Positions 9,835 to 32,389 of a stretch of DNA of 64,000 nt are shown piece by piece. Source of the DNA: Candidatus Albibeggiatoa sp. nov. NOAA (GTDB taxonomy: Bacteria > Pseudomonadota > Gammaproteobacteria > Beggiatoales > Beggiatoaceae); NCBI RefSeq assembly GCF_025800385.1, contig NZ_JAOXRS010000223.1; one strand, given 5' to 3'. The notes under the pieces were generated by a model. That model saw nothing but the letters and a program-made list of their open reading frames with translations, made no database searches and was not told the origin of the DNA. A program made the translations under genes and the position numbers. Each line of letters starts with the position of its first letter. The first letter of the stretch is position 1.

Positions 9835-12800
9835 TTATGTTGAGCTCATATCTGTATCATTCATTAAACCCAGCTGGCAGCGTTCCAAATACACTTTAGC
9901 TACATGGTCATCACGATTTTGGGTTAATACTTCCTCAAAGTGATTGCAAGCCAGTGTGAGTTCTTGCTCATGGTAAAACTTCAAGCCCAACTCAAATGCA
10001 CTGAATGTTTTTTGCTTGAGATGCAACACATGATATTCATCTGCATCAAATATTTCATACACCGTAACCGCTTCAGATTTCCCTTTGACTCGCACTCGAT
10101 CAATCATACGAATTTTATATTGTGAAGGGTCACTGAGTTTTTGATAAGTATGTTCCGTAATCAGCAATGACGTGCCATAGATTTTGGTTAAACCTTCAAT
10201 CCGTGAGGCAAGATTCACCGCATCAGAAATCACCGTCCCATCCATGCGACTACGACCACCGACTGTACCCAGCATCAGTTTACCTGTATGAATCCCAACC
10301 CCAATCCGAATCACGGGACGACCGGGGCGACCTCGAGTTTTATTATATTCATTCAAAGTCATCAACATATCAATTGCCGCTTGCACCGCATCATCTGCAT
10401 TGGTTGGAAACAGTGCCATAATCGCATCACCAATATATTTATCGATAAAACCGTTGTAATCTAAAATATTCGGTTCCATTCGACTGAGAAAGGCATTGAT
10501 AAAATCAAAATTTTCTTGCGGCGGCATTTGCTCTGAAATGGTTGTAAAATCACGAATATCCGAAAACAAAATACTCATTTCTTTTTCAACTTGATCGCCT
10601 AAACCCACATCCATCACACTTTGTTTATCTAGCAAACTGAGGAATTCACGGGGCACAAATCGTTCATAAGCCTGATTAAGCAAGCTCATATTGGTATATA
10701 AATGGGCATTCTCAATTGAAATCGTAATTTGAGAGGACAGTAAATTTAACAACTCTAAACGTTGTGGGGTAAAGGTATGCGCCATCAATTGATTTTCTAA
10801 ATATAAAATACCGACCAACTTACCTTGGTGCAGTAGAGGAGTGCATAAAATCGATTGACTTTTGTGCTGCATAACATAAGCGTCTCGGGTGAATTGCCCT
10901 TCTTCCAATGCATTATGCAATACAATACTTTCTTTCATTCGCGCCACAAAATTAATTAAGGTCTTTGGTAATTTTGCCTGATTCAACGGTTGAGACTGTA
11001 AAACCTTGACTGCATTTTTATGGATTTCATTTTCTGCTTCAACAACCAGTTGCCCGTCTTGATTCAGCAATAATACGCCACGTTCTGCCCCCGCATTTTC
11101 AACCACGATTTTCATTAAATTTTCTAACAAACTATCCAGTACAATTTCACCTGCAATCGCTTGAGAGGCTTTTAACACACTGTCTAAATCTAAATTAATA
11201 GTAGAGCCTTCACCTGAATGCAAGGTTGCATGAACAGTCGTTGTGGTACTCACAGTGTCTGATTTATTGTGTTGTGGTGCTGTAGGTTGATGAATCAATG
11301 GTAAATACTGCGCTTCTAAATCCTGCACTTTTGCAGTCACACCCCATTTTTGATACATATAATGTGCTTCACGTAAGTAAACTTGGGCAATTTTCTGCTG
11401 ACTTTGGTCGAGAAAAAATAAACCAGCCAACTCATTGGCTAAAGCCACTTCATGCGGATAATTATTGTCTTGCGCTAAATGAATCGCTTCATTGTAATAC
11501 GTCATAGCCTTGGCAGCATGGCCTTTTAAACGGTGTCGTTCTGCTTCCACTAAGTAATATTTATGCAGATGGTTCATTGGTGCATGTTTTTTCCATTTAT
11601 TCAATTTTTGCTGGTTCTGCCAAACTTGCAATAATAAATGGGCTTTTTTTGATTTAGAAGCACGTTCTGCAATCGCTACTTTAATCAAAGAATCATAAAA
11701 ATAGAAAATTGGCTCATACAACATAGCACTGATGCCACCGAGGTAAGCTTTTGCTTCAGCTGCATTTTGTACTGCACCTGCTAAATCTCGAAATAAGTAG
11801 CACAACACCATTTTATGCAAATAAATCCAGCACACTGCACTTCTATCATTGGCGTTGATTAAGTTAGATAGCGACTCTTCTTCATTATAAGCTTTACCCA
11901 CTAATGTATAGAGTTTGTCGCTTTGCCCCATTAGGTTTAACACCATTTGACGGAAGATTTTAATTCTATGTAAAACAGTATGTTGGCCTAATTGTCGAAC
12001 CACATCTTCATATGAGCGCATTTCCTGCTCTAAATTATTCAGCTCTAAACCTAAAGCAAGAGAATGGCTGCAATGAATAAAAATAGAGCGACTAGCAAAC
12101 TCCAAGTCGGCAGTTTCCAAACCATTTTGATAAGCCTGAGATAAGGGCTTAAGAGTCTGTTTTAAATGCTTTTTACTGTGTGCGATAAATGTATGAAATG
12201 AAAATAAAGTTTGCGCTTTAAAATGCGGGTATTTATTCAACAAATCTAAAGCCAACTGTCCAAAACGATAGCCATCTTCAATATCCTGTATTGAACCACA
12301 TAAAAACTGGCCATAAGTGACATAAGCAATCGGGGCTTCTTGGGTCACACCATAACGTACTGATAACAACATCATACGCATAGCAAGTAGTGGCATCAGT
12401 TCAGGATTAGCAGAGTAAGAAGCAACGGTAATTCTGGCCATGATTCGCATTGCAGCCAATTTATTTTTATCCGTCATTGGCGGGCGATTGACCAAGCTTT
12501 CAATGGTTTTATCTCGCACTGCCCAACGTGTGGTTAAATAATCTTTAGTTAAATGCCATGATTTAGGCTTTTTAGGGAATTTTTCACCTAATTCAGCTAA
12601 AACGTCTAAACCAAGATTGATCGCAGCAAGTGAGTCATCACGGGCAGTATCCGCTAAAATTTTAATTTCATAAGTTTTAATTTTATCTAATAAATGATGG
12701 GCTTGCTCAAATACAACCTGTGACAACTCATCCACTTCATCCAAATGATTACTCAAATAAGCGGCATCAATGGCTTGCTCATAAATATTCAAAGCCAGCT

Positions 12801-15183
12801 CGTAATGTGAATGCCACCGCTCTTGGGTTAATAGTTGAATTGCAATATAAAAATAATCAAATGCTGATACATAAGCCGTTGCATCTTTAGCTTTTTTACC
12901 CGCTTTATAGTTTAATTCTGCTAAATACACTTGACTAGCAAAAATATCCATGTCAAACAAAGGTAACATGGGATAATAATCTTTAGGATCAATGCCAATA
13001 TTTAACTGGTCAACAATGGTAAATACATATTGTTCACGTTGTTCAGGACTGATATTCTCAAGTAATAACTGTCCCACTTGCCAATGGGTAATCTGTTTAA
13101 AATCAGGCTCAATCAATAAGTAAACTGCTTGTTGCACACGATCATGCACAAAGGCATATTCAGACAAGCTAACATCATCGCTATGCAAGGTTTGGATTAA
13201 AATCCCTTCTTGAATTGCCAAATTGATTTGCAATAATAAATGTTCAAATTCATCTTCACACACTAACGCCAATGTTTGAAGTTGGAATTGATTACCAATG
13301 CAAGCCGCTCGCTGTAAAATCTCTTGTAACTCACTGGGTAATTGCTTGAGTTTTTTGGTTAAAATCGCGACCACATTTTCAGTGATTTCGCACTCAGCAA
13401 TTTTATCGGTATCCCATCGCCATTCAAAATACTGCCAATCAAAATCAAGTAAATTCTCACTATACAAGGATTTTAAAAACTCATTCATAAAGAATGGATT
13501 ACCTTGGGTTTTTTGCATTACCAATGCGGCGAGAGAATAGGTTTTTTCCAATGCGGCATTCAGAGAATCAGATACAAAGTAATTCACATCTTGCAGGCTG
13601 AGCGTATCTAAATTGATATTTTTAACCACAGACCCTTGTTGTTCAATATCGTTGAGACAAAGCATCAGTGGGTGCGCGGGACTGACTTCATTTTCTCGAT
13701 ACGCACCAATCAGGAATAAATACTCACTGTCGTGCATAATCATGCTGACCCAGTCTAAACTGGCTGAATCTGCCCAATGTAAGTCATCTAAAAAAACCGC
13801 TAATGGGTGTTCGGGCTGGCAAAAGACATATACAAATTGCTTAAATAATTGGTGAAAGCGGGCTTGAGTTTCATTAACATTGAGACTTTCAACAGCAGGC
13901 TGTTCACCCATAATCAATTTTAATTCAGGAATGACATCAATAATCACTTGAGCTTGAAAGTCCAGCGCACCCCCTAATTTCATTCGCCATCTTGCTAAAC
14001 TGTCTTCTGATTCTGTGAGTAGTTGTTGAATCAAATTGCGGAAAGCAGCCACAATTGCTGAATAAGGTGTATTACGTTGAAATTGGTCGAATTTTCCTGA
14101 AACAAAATAGCCACGCTTGGCGGTAATAGGTTTGTATAACTCTTGTACTAAAGCTGATTTACCCACACCTGCATAGCCTGTCACTAACATAATTTGGCTT
14201 TCACCAAGTGACGCATTATCAAACGCTGTAAGCAATGACTGAATTTCTTGATCTCGACCGTATAATTTTTGCGGTAATTGCAAACGATAAGAAATGTCTT
14301 GCTGGGCAATTTTAAAGCTAGGGTCAATTTCGCTATGTCGTTCTAGCTCTTGTTTACAATATTCTAAATCGGTTTTAATTCCCCACGCGCTTTGGTAGCG
14401 ATTTTCTGCCATTTTTTCCATCATCTTCATCACAATGTCGGAAACAGCTTGTGGAATATTGGCGTTTAATTGATTGGGTGGCGTAGGATATTTGGCCAAA
14501 TGACTGTGAATCAGCTCAATCGCGTCCTCGGTGTCAAACGGTAGACGATGTGTTAGTAATTCGTAAAAAGTAACACCTAAAGCATAAAAATCGGTGCGAT
14601 AATCCAATGTGCGATTCATGCGCCCTGTTTGTTCAGGCGATAAATAAGCCAGCGTGCCTTCCAATTGATTTTGATTTTTTAAGCTGGGGTTTTCTCGGGG
14701 TAATAAACTCGAAATCCCAAAGTCAATAATACTTAATTTTTTCGTCTCAGGGTTGTATAAAATATTGTGTGGATTCAAATCTTTATGAATCACATTGGCT
14801 GCGTGAACTTCTGCTAAAATCTGACAAATCTTAATTGCTAAATCTAAAAAGCTAATAATGCCATCCACGCCTTTTTTATTTAAAGCAGGCGTAAGCATCA
14901 ATTTTTTCAGGGTTTGCCCTTCTGATACCTCAAATATGGTAATGATATTATTTTGCTGCACTTGTTGTTCATAAGCTTTGACCACACCTGCGATTTCTTG
15001 CAAATGACATAGAATTTTATATTCTTGCTTATAATGTGCAATTTTTTCAGCGGAGGGGTAATCCTCTTGCAGGGCTTTTAAGATAACAGCTTGATTATCA
15101 GAAATGCGCGTGGCTCGGTAAATAACAGAGCTTGCACTTTCATATATTTGTTCAGCAATGCGGTAATTAGGTAGGTTAATCAT
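9835..15183 (-). CDS. Multidomain signalling protein: Ser/Thr kinase - STAND/AAA_16 P-loop NTPase - TPR-like array - GAF - class III adenylate cyclase - C-terminal TPR-like
   Basis: Single 1782-aa ORF. The kinase, P-loop, GAF and cyclase motifs are listed in the sub-features below. Confidence 0.9.
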   Translation of the reverse strand: MINLPNYRIAEQIYESASSVIYRATRISDNQAVILKALQEDYPSAEKIAHYKQEYKILCHLQEIAGVVKAYEQQVQQNNIITIFEVSEGQTLKKLMLTPALNKKGVDGIISFLDLAIKICQILAEVHAANVIHKDLNPHNILYNPETKKLSIIDFGISSLLPRENPSLKNQNQLEGTLAYLSPEQTGRMNRTLDYRTDFYALGVTFYELLTHRLPFDTEDAIELIHSHLAKYPTPPNQLNANIPQAVSDIVMKMMEKMAENRYQSAWGIKTDLEYCKQELERHSEIDPSFKIAQQDISYRLQLPQKLYGRDQEIQSLLTAFDNASLGESQIMLVTGYAGVGKSALVQELYKPITAKRGYFVSGKFDQFQRNTPYSAIVAAFRNLIQQLLTESEDSLARWRMKLGGALDFQAQVIIDVIPELKLIMGEQPAVESLNVNETQARFHQLFKQFVYVFCQPEHPLAVFLDDLHWADSASLDWVSMIMHDSEYLFLIGAYRENEVSPAHPLMLCLNDIEQQGSVVKNINLDTLSLQDVNYFVSDSLNAALEKTYSLAALVMQKTQGNPFFMNEFLKSLYSENLLDFDWQYFEWRWDTDKIAECEITENVVAILTKKLKQLPSELQEILQRAACIGNQFQLQTLALVCEDEFEHLLLQINLAIQEGILIQTLHSDDVSLSEYAFVHDRVQQAVYLLIEPDFKQITHWQVGQLLLENISPEQREQYVFTIVDQLNIGIDPKDYYPMLPLFDMDIFASQVYLAELNYKAGKKAKDATAYVSAFDYFYIAIQLLTQERWHSHYELALNIYEQAIDAAYLSNHLDEVDELSQVVFEQAHHLLDKIKTYEIKILADTARDDSLAAINLGLDVLAELGEKFPKKPKSWHLTKDYLTTRWAVRDKTIESLVNRPPMTDKNKLAAMRIMARITVASYSANPELMPLLAMRMMLLSVRYGVTQEAPIAYVTYGQFLCGSIQDIEDGYRFGQLALDLLNKYPHFKAQTLFSFHTFIAHSKKHLKQTLKPLSQAYQNGLETADLEFASRSIFIHCSHSLALGLELNNLEQEMRSYEDVVRQLGQHTVLHRIKIFRQMVLNLMGQSDKLYTLVGKAYNEEESLSNLINANDRSAVCWIYLHKMVLCYLFRDLAGAVQNAAEAKAYLGGISAMLYEPIFYFYDSLIKVAIAERASKSKKAHLLLQVWQNQQKLNKWKKHAPMNHLHKYYLVEAERHRLKGHAAKAMTYYNEAIHLAQDNNYPHEVALANELAGLFFLDQSQQKIAQVYLREAHYMYQKWGVTAKVQDLEAQYLPLIHQPTAPQHNKSDTVSTTTTVHATLHSGEGSTINLDLDSVLKASQAIAGEIVLDSLLENLMKIVVENAGAERGVLLLNQDGQLVVEAENEIHKNAVKVLQSQPLNQAKLPKTLINFVARMKESIVLHNALEEGQFTRDAYVMQHKSQSILCTPLLHQGKLVGILYLENQLMAHTFTPQRLELLNLLSSQITISIENAHLYTNMSLLNQAYERFVPREFLSLLDKQSVMDVGLGDQVEKEMSILFSDIRDFTTISEQMPPQENFDFINAFLSRMEPNILDYNGFIDKYIGDAIMALFPTNADDAVQAAIDMLMTLNEYNKTRGRPGRPVIRIGVGIHTGKLMLGTVGGRSRMDGTVISDAVNLASRIEGLTKIYGTSLLITEHTYQKLSDPSQYKIRMIDRVRVKGKSEAVTVYEIFDADEYHVLHLKQKTFSAFELGLKFYHEQELTLACNHFEEVLTQNRDDHVAKVYLERCQLGLMNDTDMSST
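10020..10580 (-). other. Class III nucleotidyl cyclase catalytic domain (predicted ATP-specific)
   Basis: MSILFSDIRDFTTISE (first metal Asp), FIDKYIGDAIMALF (second metal Asp, with Lys 4 residues before the GD), GTVGGRSRMDGTVISDAVNLASRIE (Asp at the purine-specifying position). The Lys/Asp pair indicates adenylate rather than guanylate cyclase. Confidence 0.8.
10700..11190 (-). other. GAF domain
   Basis: LDSVLKASQAIAGEIVLDSLLENLMKIVVENAGAERGVLLL...GKLVGILYLENQ...FTPQRLELLNLLSSQITISIENAHLY, a typical GAF pattern. Confidence 0.75.
13684..14271 (-). other. STAND/AAA_16-type P-loop NTPase domain
   Basis: LYGRDQEIQSLL...VTGYAGVGKS Walker A, followed by hhhhDDLHWAD Walker B-like block (VFLDDLHWADSAS), as in MalT/LuxR-type and kinase-associated AAA_16 modules. 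Confidence 0.75.
14359..15165 (-). other. Ser/Thr protein kinase domain of the 1782-aa protein
   Basis: VILK (VAIK lysine), HKDLNPHN (catalytic loop), DFG, GTLAYLSPE (APE-like). All catalytic positions appear intact. Confidence 0.85.
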
Positions 15184-16028: not shown

Positions 16029-16589
16029 ATGTCTACACAATTCCTACAGCTTAAAATTAGTTTAAAAGGGGCAAAACCCCCTATTTGGCGACGGGTTGTT
16101 GTACCAGATGCATTAACATTATTTGAATTACATCAAGTGGTCATTGCTTCGATGGGCTGGGGTGGACATCACTTACACCAATTTGAAAGTGGTGGTGTAT
16201 TTTATGGTAACCCTGAAGACGATTTATTTGGGGATGGTGATATCAAAGAAGAGAAACAATATACCTTATCAGAACTACTTACTCAGGAAAAAGATAAAAT
16301 CAACTATCAATATGATTTTGGGGATAGTTGGGAACATCAAATTATATTAGAAAAAATTTTACCGACAGTTGAGCAGCATCCTGTCTGTATAAAAGGCAAG
16401 CGTGCTTGTCCACCTGATGATGTAGGAGGTATTTGGGGCTATGGTGAATTTTTAGATATTTTAGCCCACCCAGAACATGCCGATTATAATGATACATTAG
16501 ACTGGATAGGTGGTGACTTTAATTCAGAACTATTTGATTTGAATAAAGCCAACGAGGCACTAGCACAATTACAATTTTTCAAAGCTTGA
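16029..16589 (+). CDS. Plasmid pRiA4b ORF-3-like family protein
   Basis: LQLKISLKGAKPPIWRRVVVP, LHQVV..MGW..HHLHQF, YDFGDSWEH and ACPPDDVGGIWGY are the hallmark blocks of the pRiA4b ORF-3 family. Confidence 0.75.
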   Translation: MSTQFLQLKISLKGAKPPIWRRVVVPDALTLFELHQVVIASMGWGGHHLHQFESGGVFYGNPEDDLFGDGDIKEEKQYTLSELLTQEKDKINYQYDFGDSWEHQIILEKILPTVEQHPVCIKGKRACPPDDVGGIWGYGEFLDILAHPEHADYNDTLDWIGGDFNSELFDLNKANEALAQLQFFKA

Positions 16590-25708: not shown

Positions 25709-26104
25709 TTATTCAGCTTTTTCTTCAGCTTTAGGAGGTACTGGCGCACCATAAGGAGCTGGTGGGTAAGGGTAGCCATAAGCACCGTAACCTGGGTAGC
25801 CATAGTTGCCGCCATAAGGATAGCCGCCGTAACCTGGGTAGCCATAACCGTTGTAACCATAGCCGTTGCCATAACCGTTACCACGACCACTACCACGGAT
25901 ACCGAAGTTCATGTCGAAGTTACCGTCACCAAAACCAGAACCGTCGAAAGGACCCCAGTTGTTGTAACCGTTACCATAACCAGGACCGCCCCAAGGACCA
26001 CCCCAACCATTACCAGGACCCCAACCCCACCATGCTTGAGCTGGTGTAGCAACTGTAGCAGCACCGATAACTGCTGATAAAGCTAAAACTTTTGCAAATT
26101 TCAT
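25709..26104 (-). CDS. Secreted Gly/Tyr-rich protein, sulfur-globule envelope protein (Sgp)-like
   Basis: Signal peptide [24 protein letters not shown], then [28 protein letters not shown]...[37 protein letters not shown]... and a Pro/Ala/Glu tail. Composition and layout resemble SgpA/SgpB-type proteins. The RBS aaggag sits 6 nt before the ATG at 26104. The track start at 26110 abuts the RBS. Confidence 0.55.
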
Positions 26105-26207
26105 AATCATCTCCTTTGTCAGGATTTGTTTGGATTAAGACTAAATTTATTTTGTAGTCGTCTACTCAGAATCCCTTCTTGCTGTGTTTAGCAGCAAACT
26201 CAAATAT

Positions 26208-26807: not shown

Positions 26808-28106
26808 CTAAAATCGCATACTCCAGCCAATTTCGATTTCCCATTGATCCATCTCGATTGAGCCTGTTTGTGGACCTGTATTTGGGTTCTGGCCATACAT
26901 GGTTTCATTTGGTACGTAGCAAGCGGCTAAGCTGATTTCTTGATTTTCGCCTAGTTTACGCGTAAAACCACCTGTGATATGGCGTTTGACCACAGCAGGT
27001 GCGAGAACGTTAAATAAAGATTGTTCACTTGGGAATGTGGTGCTTGCATAGCTATAACCTGCTCTAAATGTCCAGTCATGGTTATATTCCCACTGTAAAC
27101 CAAACTTATAAACGTTAATACTATCCCAGCCAAACCCTAAACCATCTTCTGTGCCTAATAATGTTTGTCCTGGCACAAAAGGAATCGCAGAGTTGTTTGA
27201 TACGGCATTCACTTTATCAAATTCGATACGTTGATAATTAAATGCAAACGTAAATTTTGGCGTGATCTTATAAGAGAAGCCTATGTCATAGTTTGGCGGC
27301 ACATCAAAATCACCATCTTCCGCAAATAAGCCTTTGTAGTCGTCAAATTCACTCATCCATAAGCGAGTTTGATAAGAAGCACCAAAGTTTAATCGATCAT
27401 TAACTTGCCAAAACCAACCAAAACGCAAGCCACCACCATAAGACATATCATAGCCATTGTTGGTTACATGTTCAGGATGTTTTGAGAAAGGAGTGAAAGG
27501 TTGTAACCCTTCTGCTTTAAAGCGTTGCATCGCAATTAATGGTGCAATACCTACTGAATGTTGTTCATTGATTTTATAAGAAATGGGTAAACCAATAAAC
27601 GCTTGCATTAAATCCACACCTGTTGGACTGGTTGCCAGCGTACTTGGTGCTGCGGGATTACCAAAATTTTGAAAGACAGGAGCGGGATACTCTGTATTCA
27701 TGCCACCATTTGCACCAAATGTTACACCAATTGATAAATCAGGCCTCACAAGATAATTGAATGCAAAATGTGGAATTAAGAAATAGTCATTTTCACTTTC
27801 ATAAGTGCCAACTGGAATTGATGCAGGGCCATTTGGTGGGCCAATAGGAGATGCATCATTATTTGCGGTAATACTACGAGAAGGTGCAAATAAGCCCAAA
27901 CCTACTTCCACTCTATTACCAACCAAGACTAGCGATCCTGGATTACTTGCGGTACACATTGCGCCCAATGCCATTGCCACACAAGCACCACCCATCGCCT
28001 TAGATTTTGGCCCATAGCCAAGAGACCAATAACCATTCGTTGCATAACTAAATTGCGAAAAACACAAACAGCTTGCCACAACAGCAATTAACAATTGTTT
28101 TCTCAC
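26808..28106 (-). CDS. FadL/OMPP1/TodX-family outer-membrane hydrophobic-compound transporter
   Basis: Signal peptide. N-terminal hatch motif NGYWSLGYGPKSKAMGGA. Alternating beta-strand pattern. C-terminal ...EIGWSMRF with terminal Phe. Confidence 0.85.
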   Translation of the reverse strand: MRKQLLIAVVASCLCFSQFSYATNGYWSLGYGPKSKAMGGACVAMALGAMCTASNPGSLVLVGNRVEVGLGLFAPSRSITANNDASPIGPPNGPASIPVGTYESENDYFLIPHFAFNYLVRPDLSIGVTFGANGGMNTEYPAPVFQNFGNPAAPSTLATSPTGVDLMQAFIGLPISYKINEQHSVGIAPLIAMQRFKAEGLQPFTPFSKHPEHVTNNGYDMSYGGGLRFGWFWQVNDRLNFGASYQTRLWMSEFDDYKGLFAEDGDFDVPPNYDIGFSYKITPKFTFAFNYQRIEFDKVNAVSNNSAIPFVPGQTLLGTEDGLGFGWDSINVYKFGLQWEYNHDWTFRAGYSYASTTFPSEQSLFNVLAPAVVKRHITGGFTRKLGENQEISLAACYVPNETMYGQNPNTGPQTGSIEMDQWEIEIGWSMRF

Positions 28107-28435
28107 TACTTTTCCTCCATTTCCTTTGGAATAGTAAGGTTTGTTATTATTGTAAAAAAACGATTATCTCGTTTAGTAACCCTACTATACTTAGTTTTAA
28201 CTTAATTTTTTATAAGGTGTCAAGCTATTTCTATATTTAAGCGGAAAAAAGAGGTGTTTTTTAGTAAAAAAGAATGGTATAGAAAATATTTAAGTGGTTA
28301 TTATATTGATTTATAAACAATAAATTTACAGAATGGATATGATAGCAAAAAATAGAGGATTTAGAAAAATTAACTTATGTTATTTTGCACTGCAATACAA
28401 GATAGGGATAGTTTGGCTTTTTTGATAATAGAGCG

Positions 28436-29851
28436 TTAGTTTAAAATTTTAGGCATATAATCTTCAGCTTGAATGCAAATATCTGTATGCGTTGCAATAA
28501 ATGTCGCAATATCTGCCTGCCAACCACCTGTTTCATTACTGTGATGGCTAATACCTGCATAATTGTATTCAACTTTGATTTTCTCAGAATGCTGTGTCAC
28601 TGCTTCACGCGAATATTCTGATGCATAAAATTTAGGTGCATCAGGATTATTACTGAGCCAAATATGACAACGGCCTTGATGACTCCACTCTGCAATAATG
28701 AGATTTTTGATTCGAAATAACAGCACACAATGATTTGCCCGCACGTTTGAACCGACTAAATTTGCATAGGTTTCTTGTACAGTTTCATGTAATTCTGGAT
28801 TATTGTGTAAAAAGCTTTGTGCTGCACTGCCTAGTACCAGCCATGCTTCATCAATATACTCACGCTCATGATATGCCCACCAAAATGCGCGTCGATATTG
28901 CCAATGTTTATCTAAAATACACTGATCTAAAATCTCGATAAAAGTATCTAAAGTTGTTCCAATTAACCAGCGATACATGATCTTCATCAATGATTTATTA
29001 ATTCCATGCCATGATTGATGGTGAATACGTGGGTCTTGTAAATGCTTAATCAGAAAAGCTTGAACAGGTTGCTTTATTTCAGTGGGTGGATCAATATTTT
29101 GCCAAGGTGTGAGCAGAGCTTGAACCAGTTTGCGCTTTGTATCTGGGTAACGTAATTGTTGATTTTCTTCGCTCCAGTCTAATAAGTTGGCTAGAGTTCC
29201 AATATCATATTTTTTCTTTCTGATCGTTTGTTGCAGTGCATTTTGATATAAGGTTTTAACATAGTTGCTATTGATTAACTCACCTTTAAAACCTAATTGT
29301 ATCAAAGCCATAAGTGGTTTATTTTTTAAACAATATTCTGTCAGTAATTGTACACCCAATTCAGGCTCAAATAATCGGTATTTTTTATGTTGTTTTTTCC
29401 AATTTTGTAATTGCTTATTTTTTAAATTTTCTTTTAAAGCCTGTTCAATAAAATAACCGACTTTATCGATATTCGTTTTTTTAAAGCTAAACTCATAGAA
29501 ATAGACCCGAATCATACGTTTCAACAAAATCGGACTGTCTAATACATGTGGCCAAAATTCATTGAATAACTCGTCATATTGGGCTAAATGATCGGCTTTT
29601 TTTCCATACCATAATAACCACACAACTTGCCGCCATTCTTGCGTTGTGATTGTTGCCCAGTCATTTTGTTGCGCTGCCTGTAAAAATTTTTGTTGTAATT
29701 GTTTTAAATCTCGGGCTTGAGGTTGACCTGTGGTTTTGGCTTGTTTGGCGAGGCGATTAGCGGTTGTAACCAATTTAGGTTTGGTTGCTGAGAATGTGAA
29801 AGGGGTTTGATTCAGCTTCTTCAGTGTTTGGCGGATGGAATAAACAGGCAT
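28436..29851 (-). CDS. EH-signature domain protein (ZorC-like), no canonical Zorya partners
   Basis: 471-aa soluble protein. The C-terminal third reads WQYRRAFWWAYHEREYIDEAWLVLG...HCVLLFRIKNLIIAEWSHQGRCHIWLS...PKFYASEY...GISHHSNETGGWQADIATFI. By my recollection this matches the RxxFW...AW / hhhhEfSHxG / H...W layout of the EH_Signature family. RBS aaggcgg. The gene starts 11 nt after the upstream ORF. Confidence 0.55.
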   Translation of the reverse strand: MPVYSIRQTLKKLNQTPFTFSATKPKLVTTANRLAKQAKTTGQPQARDLKQLQQKFLQAAQQNDWATITTQEWRQVVWLLWYGKKADHLAQYDELFNEFWPHVLDSPILLKRMIRVYFYEFSFKKTNIDKVGYFIEQALKENLKNKQLQNWKKQHKKYRLFEPELGVQLLTEYCLKNKPLMALIQLGFKGELINSNYVKTLYQNALQQTIRKKKYDIGTLANLLDWSEENQQLRYPDTKRKLVQALLTPWQNIDPPTEIKQPVQAFLIKHLQDPRIHHQSWHGINKSLMKIMYRWLIGTTLDTFIEILDQCILDKHWQYRRAFWWAYHEREYIDEAWLVLGSAAQSFLHNNPELHETVQETYANLVGSNVRANHCVLLFRIKNLIIAEWSHQGRCHIWLSNNPDAPKFYASEYSREAVTQHSEKIKVEYNYAGISHHSNETGGWQADIATFIATHTDICIQAEDYMPKILN

Positions 29852-29862
29852 GATGACCGCCT

Positions 29863-30366
29863 TTAAATCATAATTGAGCTGAGATAAGGGTGCGGTTCAG
29901 CTTCTTCCCACATTTGGGTAAATGTATTGCCCAGTGATTTGGCCAGCTGCGCATCACTAAAATGAAAATTGGTTTTTAGGCTATCAGGATAAGGCTTATG
30001 GATAACACCGATATTATCCGCAATCAAAAAAGTATCAGCATAGGATTTAAACCGTTCTGGCAGGCAGCGAAAACTAAAAAAGCTACTGAGTTTTTTACCC
30101 AAATCAATCAAGCAATGCCCTCGACTCGCTGCTAACTGGGGATCATGCAGAATCACGCGCACATGACAACGGTGATTTTGCAGCACAAAGCTCTCAAATG
30201 CCTCAAACATCTCATCATTATCATATGTCAAAGGGTCAAAGTCACGGGTTAAAATATCAATTTTTCTATCAGCTTGACACACAATTGTTGTTGTTAATTG
30301 TTGGATTTGTTCTACATCTGTTTCGGTTAAAGTGTGTTCTGTTTCACCTAAAATTAATTCATCCAT
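29863..30366 (-). CDS. Conserved hypothetical cytoplasmic protein (167 aa)
   Basis: Intact ORF with no TM segment or signal peptide. Pattern DILTRDFDP..YD...F.EAF..FVL.N..C.VRVILHDP..A...GH.LIDLGKKL.S...FR......K...DTFLIAD..G resembles a widespread gammaproteobacterial hypothetical family with a PLD-like repeat feel but no HKD motif. Almost contiguous with the EH-signature gene. Confidence 0.5.
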   Translation of the reverse strand: MDELILGETEHTLTETDVEQIQQLTTTIVCQADRKIDILTRDFDPLTYDNDEMFEAFESFVLQNHRCHVRVILHDPQLAASRGHCLIDLGKKLSSFFSFRCLPERFKSYADTFLIADNIGVIHKPYPDSLKTNFHFSDAQLAKSLGNTFTQMWEEAEPHPYLSSIMI

Positions 30367-30427
30367 TTTACGTACTCTAATCTTCGTCTTCTGCTAGTCA
30401 AAATTGGATAAAGTATACCCTTTATAA

Positions 30428-30691
30428 TCAGGTCAGTTGTTTGTTAATTTGATTACTACCAAAATGCTCGATAAATAACTTTTTAGATTGCCTAAACAAA
30501 TGATTTTGTATCTCTGGGTTCAAGCCCTCAGCAATAAAAACATCTCTCAGAAAATCATCAGCTTCGCAAGCATCACTCAACTTGGAAAAAATTGTGGCAA
30601 TATCTTGCGGAAATAAACAAATACCAAGCTTAGAGCATAGTTTATCAAGAAATCGTCTCAACTCAGTTTCTATAGGCAATTGCTCTGTCAT
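30428..30691 (-). CDS. Hypothetical small acidic protein (87 aa)
   Basis: ORF sits between the membrane protein and the 167-aa ORF on the same strand, with a 26-nt gap upstream. I recognise no family. Confidence 0.45.
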   Translation of the reverse strand: MTEQLPIETELRRFLDKLCSKLGICLFPQDIATIFSKLSDACEADDFLRDVFIAEGLNPEIQNHLFRQSKKLFIEHFGSNQINKQLT

Positions 30692-30717: not shown

Positions 30718-32277
30718 CTAATCATCGATTAACTTTTCAGTTTCGGCAATCTTCTTTTTAATTTCATCCAGTTCTTGTTGCTTTTCTTCTAGTTGTTCAT
30801 GTAGTTTTTGTAAATATTTTTTTGGATTACGGCTTTGCTGCCAACGTTTTATCACATCAATCAAAATGAAAATACGAATCAAGCGATTCATTGTCGAACG
30901 AGCACGATACACATTCAGTAATTTTTGCCATTTGACTGAATAATTCACCACCATTTTCTGAATGAAGCCATATTTTGCTAAAAAGCCAAATTGGGTTAAA
31001 CGTAAGAAACGTGCAAAAGCTAACATAGGCAATAAGATAATTAACAATTCGACCCAATGTTGAATAATATATTTTTGCCATTTTTTAGTCAGCGAAATTT
31101 CAATCACAAACTCCGCCACAAATACAGCCCATACAACAGCATTACCAATATTCATGGCATGATGAAATAAAATATAATCTTTGAGATAATGGGCAAAAAA
31201 TAGCTCTGCTAGCCAAATCGGTGTCATAATAACTAAAACTAACATAATCCAAAATAAGAACTGTCTCTCAATTTTGTCAAACAATTCTTCTCGGACTAAC
31301 TCCCAATGACTGAAATACCAAATATACTGCTTTTTATGACAACGGCGAGCGGCTAAATGCAGTGGTGGAAATAAGGTAATAAAAAATGCGGCTACAAAAC
31401 TACGCCATGTTTTATTCGGACAGAGACTTAAGTATAAAAAACGTTCTATGGCAAACACAATCCACAAACCAAACAACACCCATTGCATTTCCTCCAGATA
31501 ATGAAGGCTGCGCATACCCTCGTCTGTTTGATAATATTGGATTAAAACTGCTGAAAGCCCTAAAAAAATGATTTTGAGCAAAAACATAAACCGAACAATA
31601 TAATTATCAATCCAGTTGTAATAAGCTTGTAGCCCAAATACATGAATTAAGCGATTAAGTGCGGCAAGAGGATATACAAAAATAAATAAGTCCAACCAAT
31701 GATTGACTAAATATCGTGATGATTTGGGCGATGTACCCAACATGATTGCCAGCTCTATTATCCATAACGTCATGACCAAACTCATGCTCAGCAATTGAAT
31801 GTGCATCAGCCATGATTGCTGCGCCACAGATGGCATCCAAATAGATAAAAGCTGAAGAGGTAATAAAACAATGAGCGCAATTAATAAAATCGGATATAAA
31901 AAACGCTGTTCTAATTGATCTAAATGATTGGCATCAGCAGGCTTCCAACCAAACACCCAAACCTGTTGTTGTTTCAGGTGGCCAAAACGAAGCGGGGGAA
32001 TAAGACTCGCCAGTGCATATTGATAGGTTTGCTGTCGCCATGAAAAGGATTCGGTTGAAAACACATAATCAAACCAACGCTCAAAAAATATCAAAAACCA
32101 GCACAATGGAAGCAACGTAAATAAAATCATGCTTAAATAGGGCAGCTGATCCGTATAATCATGAGCATCATAAACAGCATAGGTAAAGCTTAGAAAAGTA
32201 AAACTAAGCGTTACTAAAAACCAAAAGCTGGGAATAATTTGACGGTGGAATTGTTGAAGTTGCCCTATCCAATTCAT
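30718..32277 (-). CDS. Polytopic membrane protein: tandem duplication of a voltage-sensor-like (S1-S4-like) module plus C-terminal coiled coil
   Basis: The two halves align with a constant offset of about 210-214 aa (FFERWF/AIERFL; IPPLRF/FPPLHL; EQRFLYP/ERQFLFW; WIIELAIML/VAEFVIEI; NHWLDLFIF/QHWVELLII; YPLAALNRLIHVF/LPMLAFARFLRLT). The E...HWxDL...R..R pattern resembles S2-S3-S4 of Ion_trans voltage sensors. No pore loop is seen. The tail KKYLQKLHEQLEEKQQELDEIKKKIAETEKLIDD is coiled-coil. The ATG at 32277 is preferred. The track start at 32340 is a GTG. Confidence 0.6.
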   Translation of the reverse strand: MNWIGQLQQFHRQIIPSFWFLVTLSFTFLSFTYAVYDAHDYTDQLPYLSMILFTLLPLCWFLIFFERWFDYVFSTESFSWRQQTYQYALASLIPPLRFGHLKQQQVWVFGWKPADANHLDQLEQRFLYPILLIALIVLLPLQLLSIWMPSVAQQSWLMHIQLLSMSLVMTLWIIELAIMLGTSPKSSRYLVNHWLDLFIFVYPLAALNRLIHVFGLQAYYNWIDNYIVRFMFLLKIIFLGLSAVLIQYYQTDEGMRSLHYLEEMQWVLFGLWIVFAIERFLYLSLCPNKTWRSFVAAFFITLFPPLHLAARRCHKKQYIWYFSHWELVREELFDKIERQFLFWIMLVLVIMTPIWLAELFFAHYLKDYILFHHAMNIGNAVVWAVFVAEFVIEISLTKKWQKYIIQHWVELLIILLPMLAFARFLRLTQFGFLAKYGFIQKMVVNYSVKWQKLLNVYRARSTMNRLIRIFILIDVIKRWQQSRNPKKYLQKLHEQLEEKQQELDEIKKKIAETEKLIDD

Positions 32278-32389
32278 TAAGCTAACCTTTTGGATTCGTG
32301 CTGCGAGCGTTATGCTTATGATACATGTCACTTGCAACACATTAAACTAAAAATAAGACTAAATCATAAAAAATGTGGTTAGCTATGGG

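Follow-up and report, generated by a model that had tools for sequence, protein, structure and literature searches.

How does a gene of the anti-phage system Zorya come to stand by itself in a bacterial chromosome, and is it still at work there? The question is raised by a gene on a stretch of 64,000 nucleotides from Candidatus Albibeggiatoa sp. nov. NOAA (Beggiatoaceae; contig NZ_JAOXRS010000223.1), the whole of which we call the window. The gene runs from 28436 to 29851 on the minus strand, opens with ATG and encodes a solitary short-form ZorC (EH-signature) protein of 471 residues, as seen from its open reading frame (ORF), Pfam, PADLOC and AlphaFold2 (AF2). A first-pass annotation, made from the letters of the sequence, had described an orphan ZorC-like protein without ZorA, ZorB or ZorD; it had drawn the ORF exactly, and the gene is indeed solitary in the window. 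We find, beyond that annotation, that a whole clade of Beggiatoaceae shares the orphan state, which is conserved and under selection, and we are highly confident of the identity, orphan status, origin and functionality of this ZorC taken together. What is new here is a long-lived, selected solitary ZorC lineage, together with a solitary ZorB in the same genomes; the protein family itself is known.

The product of 28436–29851 is a true member of the ZorC family, in its short form. The motifs by which it had been assigned to the EH-signature family, namely RRAFWWAY, EAWLVLG, AEWSHQGRCHIW and GISHH...GGWQADIATFI, are all found in the protein, and the assignment is borne out by hmmscan, in which Pfam EH_Signature (PF15611) matches the 471 residues highly significantly (E 1.9e-40, 139.9 bits against a cut-off of 27.5), from residue 30 to 448 of the protein and from position 7 to 420 of the 423 in the profile. 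The PADLOC model for ZorC1 (PDLC00622) matches at E 1.2e-94 over profile positions 3–459 of 462; NCBIfam holds no model that matches the protein. HMMER, run exhaustively against 1.84 billion representative proteins, returned 1,596 relatives, mostly of 455–480 residues. Among the sequences of the PDB, the ZorC of Escherichia coli (EcZorC) was missed both by a single-sequence phmmer search and by a profile of 10 sequences from the clade, and was reached by a profile of 49 sequences (8r68_A, E 1.6e-12).

The residues that matter most in EcZorC are kept. The 'E' of the EH signature is Glu388 (codon 28688–28690, minus strand), which lies in AEWSH at the end of a beta-strand. The first-pass annotation had named this residue and placed its codon correctly, and in the profile alignment to 8r68_A it falls on the essential Glu400 of EcZorC (IAEWS in the window protein on FVEFS in EcZorC); the position is acidic in 49/49 relatives (E in 30, D in 19). 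For the 'H' of the signature both His436 and His437 had been put forward. His436 (codon 28544–28546, minus strand), 48 residues after Glu388, is invariant in 49/49 relatives and conserved to at least 90% in the orphan group and in the canonical group alike, whereas the adjoining His437 is variable. The corresponding spacing in EcZorC is 43 residues and the hidden Markov model alignment ended at EcZorC residue 406, so that the likely equivalence of His436 to EcZorC His443 is suggested by spacing and invariance. Codons 317–324 (WQYRRAFW; 28880–28903, minus strand) carry Arg320 and Trp324, which align with EcZorC Arg335 and Trp339 and belong to the electrostatic network round the EH motif; W317, R320 and W324 are invariant in all 49 relatives. 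In EcZorC this network is formed by Glu400, His443, Asp332, Arg335, Trp339 and Trp458 (Hu et al., PMC11946911), and either of the exchanges E400A and H443A abolishes defence (PMC11946911).

The predicted structure points the same way. The AlphaFold2 model has a predicted local distance difference test score (pLDDT) of 91.1 and a predicted template modelling score (pTM) of 0.85, and is all-helical in its first 330 or so residues, after which comes an alpha/beta domain with the EH residues. In a Foldseek comparison with the PDB, the sole significant match (E <=0.001) is the ZorC of 8R68 (E 1.2e-6, probability 1.00, template modelling scores 0.53/0.62 over 403 aligned columns), and the next match has an E of 0.29; the predicted fold thus matches ZorC alone. 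The first-pass annotation had also called the N-terminal 300 residues helical and basic. The helices are there, as far as about residue 330, but the charge is not spread evenly: the protein as a whole has an isoelectric point (pI) of 9.2 and a net charge of +13, the positive charge is clustered at residues 1–60 (+10 net) and 151–250 (+8), and the C-terminal alpha/beta part is net acidic.

No Zorya partner gene was found in the window. Pfam was run on all window ORFs of at least 150 residues, and none of them carries a MotA/ExbB, MotB/OmpA, SNF2 or other helicase, or HNH domain. The earlier statement that no MotAB-like or SNF2/helicase gene lies within at least 10 kb therefore holds for the entire 64-kb window, by Pfam and by profiles, and the statement that no HNH gene lies nearby agrees with the absence of an HNH domain from every Pfam scan. 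Profiles for ZorA, ZorB and ZorD built from 19 canonical operons were run against the six-frame translation of the window with the filters off, and the best E values were 0.36, 2.6 and 1, respectively. The Pfam matches give the window ORFs housekeeping, envelope and signalling functions, among them anthranilate synthase, type IV pilus assembly, a DegP-like protease, pyrophosphatase, spermidine synthase, hybrid histidine kinases, an Rnf-like Fe-S protein, an L-aspartate oxidase-like flavoprotein, sulfotransferases, UDP-glucose dehydrogenase and a sulfur-globule protein.

Is this gene an isolated accident? The alignment of the clade was used as a query against genome and metagenome collections, which gave 65 loci with ZorC relatives (cited here by L numbers where needed). 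Outside the Beggiatoaceae, ZorA/ZorB and/or ZorD flank ZorC in 29/29 genome loci and 30/30 metagenome loci, a count of 59/59 that holds wherever the contig extends far enough; by PADLOC, for example, Defluviicoccus vanus (L016) has ZorA1, B1, C1 and D1, and Methylocaldum sp. (L012) has ZorA1, B1 and D1. In the Beggiatoaceae clade, no locus has a ZorA or a ZorD within about 10 kb around each gene, or within 64 kb in the case of the window. Loci without any Zor neighbour are the window, L001 (Beggiatoa alba), L082 (B. leptomitoformis), L002/L009, L003, L004/L007, L008 and L011. Identity to the window ZorC is 77–86% at four other Albibeggiatoa loci, about 42% in B. alba B18LD and B. leptomitoformis, and 38–42% at three further Beggiatoaceae/Thiotrichaceae metagenome loci. 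The Beggiatoaceae ZorCs are monophyletic in 198 of 200 neighbour-joining bootstraps and are nested among ZorCs encoded in operons, and in Albibeggiatoa the region of the gene is syntenic with that of the sister species (FadL/Smr/VWA-lectin/spermidine synthase).

A locus of Beggiatoa sp. SZUA-411 (L005/L010, 4947–9544) looks like an intermediate, that is, a half-dismantled Zorya locus with new small neighbours. It encodes a PilZ protein of 122 residues, a ZorB1 of 312 residues, an alcohol dehydrogenase (ADH) on the opposite strand, ZorC and a PD-(D/E)xK protein. The ZorB1 is full-length, lies about 1 kb upstream of ZorC and matches our own profile at E 1.8e-84 and that of PADLOC at 1.1e-85; the ZorC has 516 residues and carries a 43-residue insertion; and the PD-(D/E)xK protein, of 199 residues, follows ZorC after 42 nt (PADLOC PDLC01472, E 2.5e-51). 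Since a clade without ZorA and ZorD is nested among operon-encoded ZorCs and this intermediate exists, we suggest that the Beggiatoaceae lineage once had a type I Zorya operon, which then came apart.

The solitary ZorC genes do not look neglected. Full-length, intact ZorC ORFs are present in at least 10 organisms of several genera at 37–86% identity. Among four Albibeggiatoa orthologues the pairwise ratio of nonsynonymous to synonymous substitution rates (dN/dS) is 0.05–0.11, with synonymous sites saturated, similar to the 0.04–0.08 of the neighbouring FadL-like gene. Of the positions at which 57 canonical ZorCs are highly conserved (to about 85% or above), only four have another majority residue in the eight orphans, all of them mild changes (L/M113, R/Q318, V/L338, G/K382), and the orphans have a pI of 8.5–9.6 vs a mean of 9.4 for canonical short ZorCs. 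That the gene is a non-functional relic of a degraded Zorya, not yet lost, is therefore very improbable in our view: three of the four Zorya I genes are absent from the locus, none of the four is dispensable in E. coli (PMC11946911, PMC11890865), and one metagenomic copy has an in-frame TAA, but against this stand the intact ORFs across such divergence, the low dN/dS at saturated synonymous sites, the retention of all family-invariant residues and the confident AlphaFold model.

If the gene is functional, with what does it act? A search seeded with the ZorB of SZUA-411 found close homologues in Beggiatoa alba and Albibeggiatoa. These solitary ZorB1 loci (L041, L042/L043, L080/L081, L044 and L045/L046) each have a different housekeeping context, and no ZorA was found within 10 kb of the ZorB genes by context and profile checks. 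ZorB and ZorC are unlinked in B. alba (chromosome JH600070.1; ZorB at 3.44 Mb, L041; ZorC at 2.25 Mb), in Albibeggiatoa BB20 (ZorB on scaffold_248, L042/L043; ZorC on scaffold_242) and in GCA_964388965.1 (ZorB on contig 29, L080/L081; ZorC on contig 16). The solitary ZorBs match the PADLOC model ZorB1 PDLC00610 at E ~1e-85, equal to ZorBs encoded in operons, and retain the Asp of the transmembrane SLSDLM and the OmpA-like motifs. As the same genomes keep a solitary ZorB elsewhere, 'orphan' may mean 'unlinked' and not 'alone'. Moreover, one would not expect a MotB-like protein to function unless a MotA-like partner is present, the two forming 5:2 stator complexes (PMC11890865), which hints that a ZorA may also exist somewhere in these genomes.

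As a whole, the explanation that we prefer is a functional ZorC, derived from a broken-up type I Zorya, that acts with partners encoded elsewhere, and we regard the chances for and against it as about even. After the break-up of the operon, ZorC would bind double-stranded DNA on the basic face with the EH motif, by analogy with EcZorC, and would bring a partner to the DNA. The partners would be encoded elsewhere as a scattered Zorya I, including the solitary ZorB1, with ZorA and ZorD at other loci, and the DUF7931 protein encoded next to ZorC in Albibeggiatoa (see below) may be a lineage-specific accessory. The narrower claim that ZorC still works with unlinked Zorya partners ('scattered Zorya') is favored by the intact co-retention of ZorB and by the persistence of the canonical constraints on ZorC, and we consider it plausible while placing it a little short of an even chance. 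More tentatively, and at clearly less than even weight, we suggest that parts of an anti-phage system have become stable chromosomal genes, either as a scattered Zorya machine or as an autonomous DNA-directed ZorC that depends on neither the ZorAB motor nor ZorD and has DUF7931 as a new partner.

Several observations weigh against the explanation that we prefer. In E. coli, Zorya I gives no defence unless all four genes are present (PMC11946911, PMC11890865), and Zorya genes are otherwise found as operons. No ZorA or ZorD is present in any Beggiatoaceae sequence examined, that is, in about 10 kb around each gene. No ZorB from B. leptomitoformis was among the top ZorB matches, and the co-occurrence of ZorB and ZorC may thus be incomplete. 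The gene is set among housekeeping and signalling genes and not in a defence island. The window protein lacks the C-terminal globular domain of EcZorC, as do canonical short ZorCs (458–480 residues, e.g. the 458-residue protein of L016). Finally, a metagenomic copy that is 77% identical (L047) has an in-frame TAA at 1657–1659, which replaces a Gln before the invariant DPR. This stop could be the mark of a pseudogene or a sequencing error; it is the sole sign of decay that we saw in the clade. No DUF7931 gene lies upstream of ZorC in this copy.

The gene directly upstream of ZorC in Albibeggiatoa deserves attention as a possible partner. In the window it lies at 29863–30366 on the minus strand and encodes a DUF7931 protein of 167 residues (PF25559, E 3.6e-34, 118 bits against a cut-off of 27, profile positions 3–146 of 149). 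Its stop is separated from the ZorC start by a spacer of 11 nt (29852–29862, minus strand), which holds a Shine-Dalgarno-like AGGCGG (...ATT TAA AGGCGGTCATC ATG CCT...). The arrangement is seen, with a spacing of 8–13 nt, in 5/5 Albibeggiatoa loci that have upstream sequence, the window included, and the two genes are probably co-transcribed in Ca. Albibeggiatoa. What lies upstream of the pair varies: recA in one metagenome-assembled genome, a gene for a 293-residue protein in BB20, and the genes for an 87-residue protein and a 540-residue membrane protein in the window. The 293-residue protein is of no known family, and its gene is found upstream of DUF7931 in L079, L004 and L007 and not in the window. 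The blastn breakpoints against these three loci all fall at window position 30395, 29 nt before the DUF7931 start, and L079 is about 98% identical to the window over the DUF7931-ZorC block. At the upstream edge of the conserved block is a short leader (30367–30401, minus strand), in which a consensus scan picked out a promoter-like TTGACT-16-TAGAGT; in the scan for promoters and terminators the site counts were not above those of shuffled controls.

DUF7931 itself is under purifying selection (dN/dS 0.08–0.13). An AlphaFold prediction from five close homologues was unusable (pLDDT 41), the secondary-structure pattern alternates between alpha and beta, and a profile search against the PDB gave no match. 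A permissive Pfam scan gave DUF7436 (E 0.005 to 2e-5) and, in one orthologue, a non-significant PLDc_2 (E 0.12). The protein has no HKD motif. A word-index search for homologues returned the Albibeggiatoa copies only, one of them identical and recorded under Candidatus Albibeggiatoa sp. nov. NOAA, and we found no mention of DUF7931 in the literature. There is no DUF7931 beside ZorC in Beggiatoa alba, B. leptomitoformis, L003, L010 or L011, and as it is not next to ZorC in other genera, DUF7931 can be a partner at the level of the genus at most.

The strongest rival to our preferred explanation is that ZorC has been repurposed, that is, kept for a host function (for example in DNA binding or regulation), together with DUF7931 in Albibeggiatoa, ZorB being retained independently. 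The gene is vertically inherited in housekeeping surroundings that are syntenic in sister species, ZorC and DUF7931 are both under purifying selection, and their coupling at 8–13 nt is kept while the upstream flank changes, even at about 98% identity. That neither ZorA nor ZorD was seen in the sequences examined, and that B. leptomitoformis had no ZorB among the top matches, also fit a new host role. Repurposing does less well with three other findings. DUF7931 adjoins ZorC in Albibeggiatoa only; nearly all canonical ZorC constraints persist, which is not obviously to be expected of a protein that has taken on a new role and new partners; and at least four of the genomes have also kept a ZorB that is intact, ion-relay Asp included. 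We therefore regard repurposing as possible but on the unlikely side.

Alternatively, ZorC could be the DNA-binding subunit of a minimal defence module, in which a small effector has replaced ZorD, namely DUF7931 in Albibeggiatoa and the PD-(D/E)xK protein in SZUA-411. The latter protein follows ZorC closely in L010, and the alpha/beta pattern of DUF7931 and its faint match to PLDc_2 could be read in the same sense. Some PLD-fold proteins are nucleases. However, the PLD hint is non-significant and comes without an HKD motif, and the model of DUF7931 is too poor to be of help. DUF7931 and the PD-(D/E)xK protein are unrelated, as a direct comparison of the two showed, no small nuclease-like gene lies beside ZorC at four other orphan loci, and there is neither a defence island nor a patchy distribution, inheritance looking stable instead. 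We consider such a module improbable, and our preferred explanation of an unlinked but functional Zorya ZorC stands ahead of it.

Other genes near the solitary ZorCs were considered as partners. A pairing of ZorC with cyclase or signalling genes was rejected as incidental. The upstream gene is PAS-GGDEF in B. alba, while L003 has a cyclase there and L011 a sigma-54 activator, but B. leptomitoformis has a divergently transcribed DAGK gene at that place and these genomes are rich in signalling genes. In the two Beggiatoa species, a convergent ORF of 138/142 residues without a Pfam family overlaps the 3′-end of ZorC by a few bases (L001 11422–11838, L082 11415–11843, both minus strand) and is followed by a UPF0114 gene; downstream synteny is thus kept in both, and the upstream gene differs (PAS-GGDEF vs DAGK). 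A separate observation concerns L073, where ZorA, ZorB and ZorC are encoded from about 9255 onward and the ZorD profile finds nothing in the roughly 10 kb of contig downstream; this may be a form of Zorya I in which the fourth gene is another one.

In the window, the DUF7931-ZorC unit is closed off downstream by an AT-rich intergenic region of 329 bp (28107–28435; GC 0.33 in that kilobase), beyond which lies the FadL-like outer-membrane gene (26808–28106, Pfam Toluene_X). Upstream, the 540-residue protein (30718–32340, minus strand) has many predicted membrane helices and a C-terminal coiled coil and matches no Pfam or NCBIfam family and no PADLOC family significantly. It was considered as a divergent ZorA and rejected (ZorA profile E 3.6, no Pfam match); its gene is missing upstream of the DUF7931-ZorC pair in the sister species. 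Between it and DUF7931 is the ORF of 87 residues (30428–30691, minus strand), which has no family match. A 26-nt stretch of this ORF matches the start of L079, where the 293-residue gene intervenes before DUF7931. Elsewhere in the window we note a protein of 1,782 residues (9835–15183, minus strand) in which a Ser/Thr kinase is joined to an AAA_16/STAND-like NTPase, a GAF domain and an adenylate/guanylate cyclase; a plasmid pRiA4b ORF-3-like protein (16029–16589, plus strand; PF07929, E 5.5e-64) between the RseC/MucC and DegP-like protease genes; and the sulfur globule protein (25709–26110, minus strand; PF17228, E 1.1e-8), which fits the sulfur-oxidising Beggiatoaceae.

What ZorC does in Zorya is understood only in part: the protein binds DNA and is required along with ZorD, and neither the chemistry of the EH motif nor recruitment by the ZorA tail has been worked out. 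A ZorC that has long been kept under selection without an adjacent zorA or zorD amounts to evolution's own separation-of-function experiment. If these genomes truly lack ZorA and ZorD, ZorC must be active in its own right, with DUF7931 as a candidate for a new partner. If they are present but scattered, Zorya needs no operon, and defence finders that rely on co-localisation would miss such systems; a scattered Zorya, if true, would be without precedent for this system, which is otherwise known solely in operon form. In the literature we found no description of a conserved solitary ZorC or ZorB, nor of Zorya in Beggiatoa.

How, then, does the solitary ZorC compare with known systems? With EcZorC (PDB 8R68; Hu et al., Nature 2024, PMC11946911) it has the fold and the profile family in common; both proteins are basic, with poorly ordered N-terminal helices, and both have the Glu followed by the His. 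Identity to EcZorC is only about 15%, and the window protein has 471 residues vs 560 in EcZorC; it ends with the core domain and thus without the C-terminal globular domain. In EcZorC the EH face binds DNA (PMC11946911) and the C-terminal globular domain is required for DNA binding (PMC11946911). As this domain is missing here, DNA binding is less readily expected of the window ZorC; the first-pass annotation had taken its basic N-terminus as compatible with nucleic-acid binding, but the support is weaker than that wording implied. The pI, the net charge and the basic N-terminal and central helices would speak only indirectly for a sequence-independent, EH-dependent binding of double-stranded DNA. 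A further difference is that the window ZorC is not encoded beside zorA, zorB or zorD.

The canonical short-form ZorC1 proteins (PADLOC PDLC00621, PDLC00622 and PDLC00626; L012 and L016) are closer. They fall in the same length class of 455–480 residues, share the same best PADLOC models from end to end, are 29–31% identical to the window ZorC and have the same conserved positions. Their genes have Zorya neighbours, whereas those of the Beggiatoaceae clade never occur with zorA or zorD and the Albibeggiatoa ZorC is coupled to DUF7931. Compared with type I Zorya as PADLOC and DefenseFinder define it (ZorA, ZorB, ZorC and ZorD co-localised), the window has ZorC only and the sister genomes hold ZorB1; as the co-localised set of four genes is absent, both programs would call no Zorya here. 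Orphan hits, as the authors of PADLOC point out, tend to be more divergent and to score less well (PMC8565338). Unlike such hits, the window ZorC is both strong and full-length.

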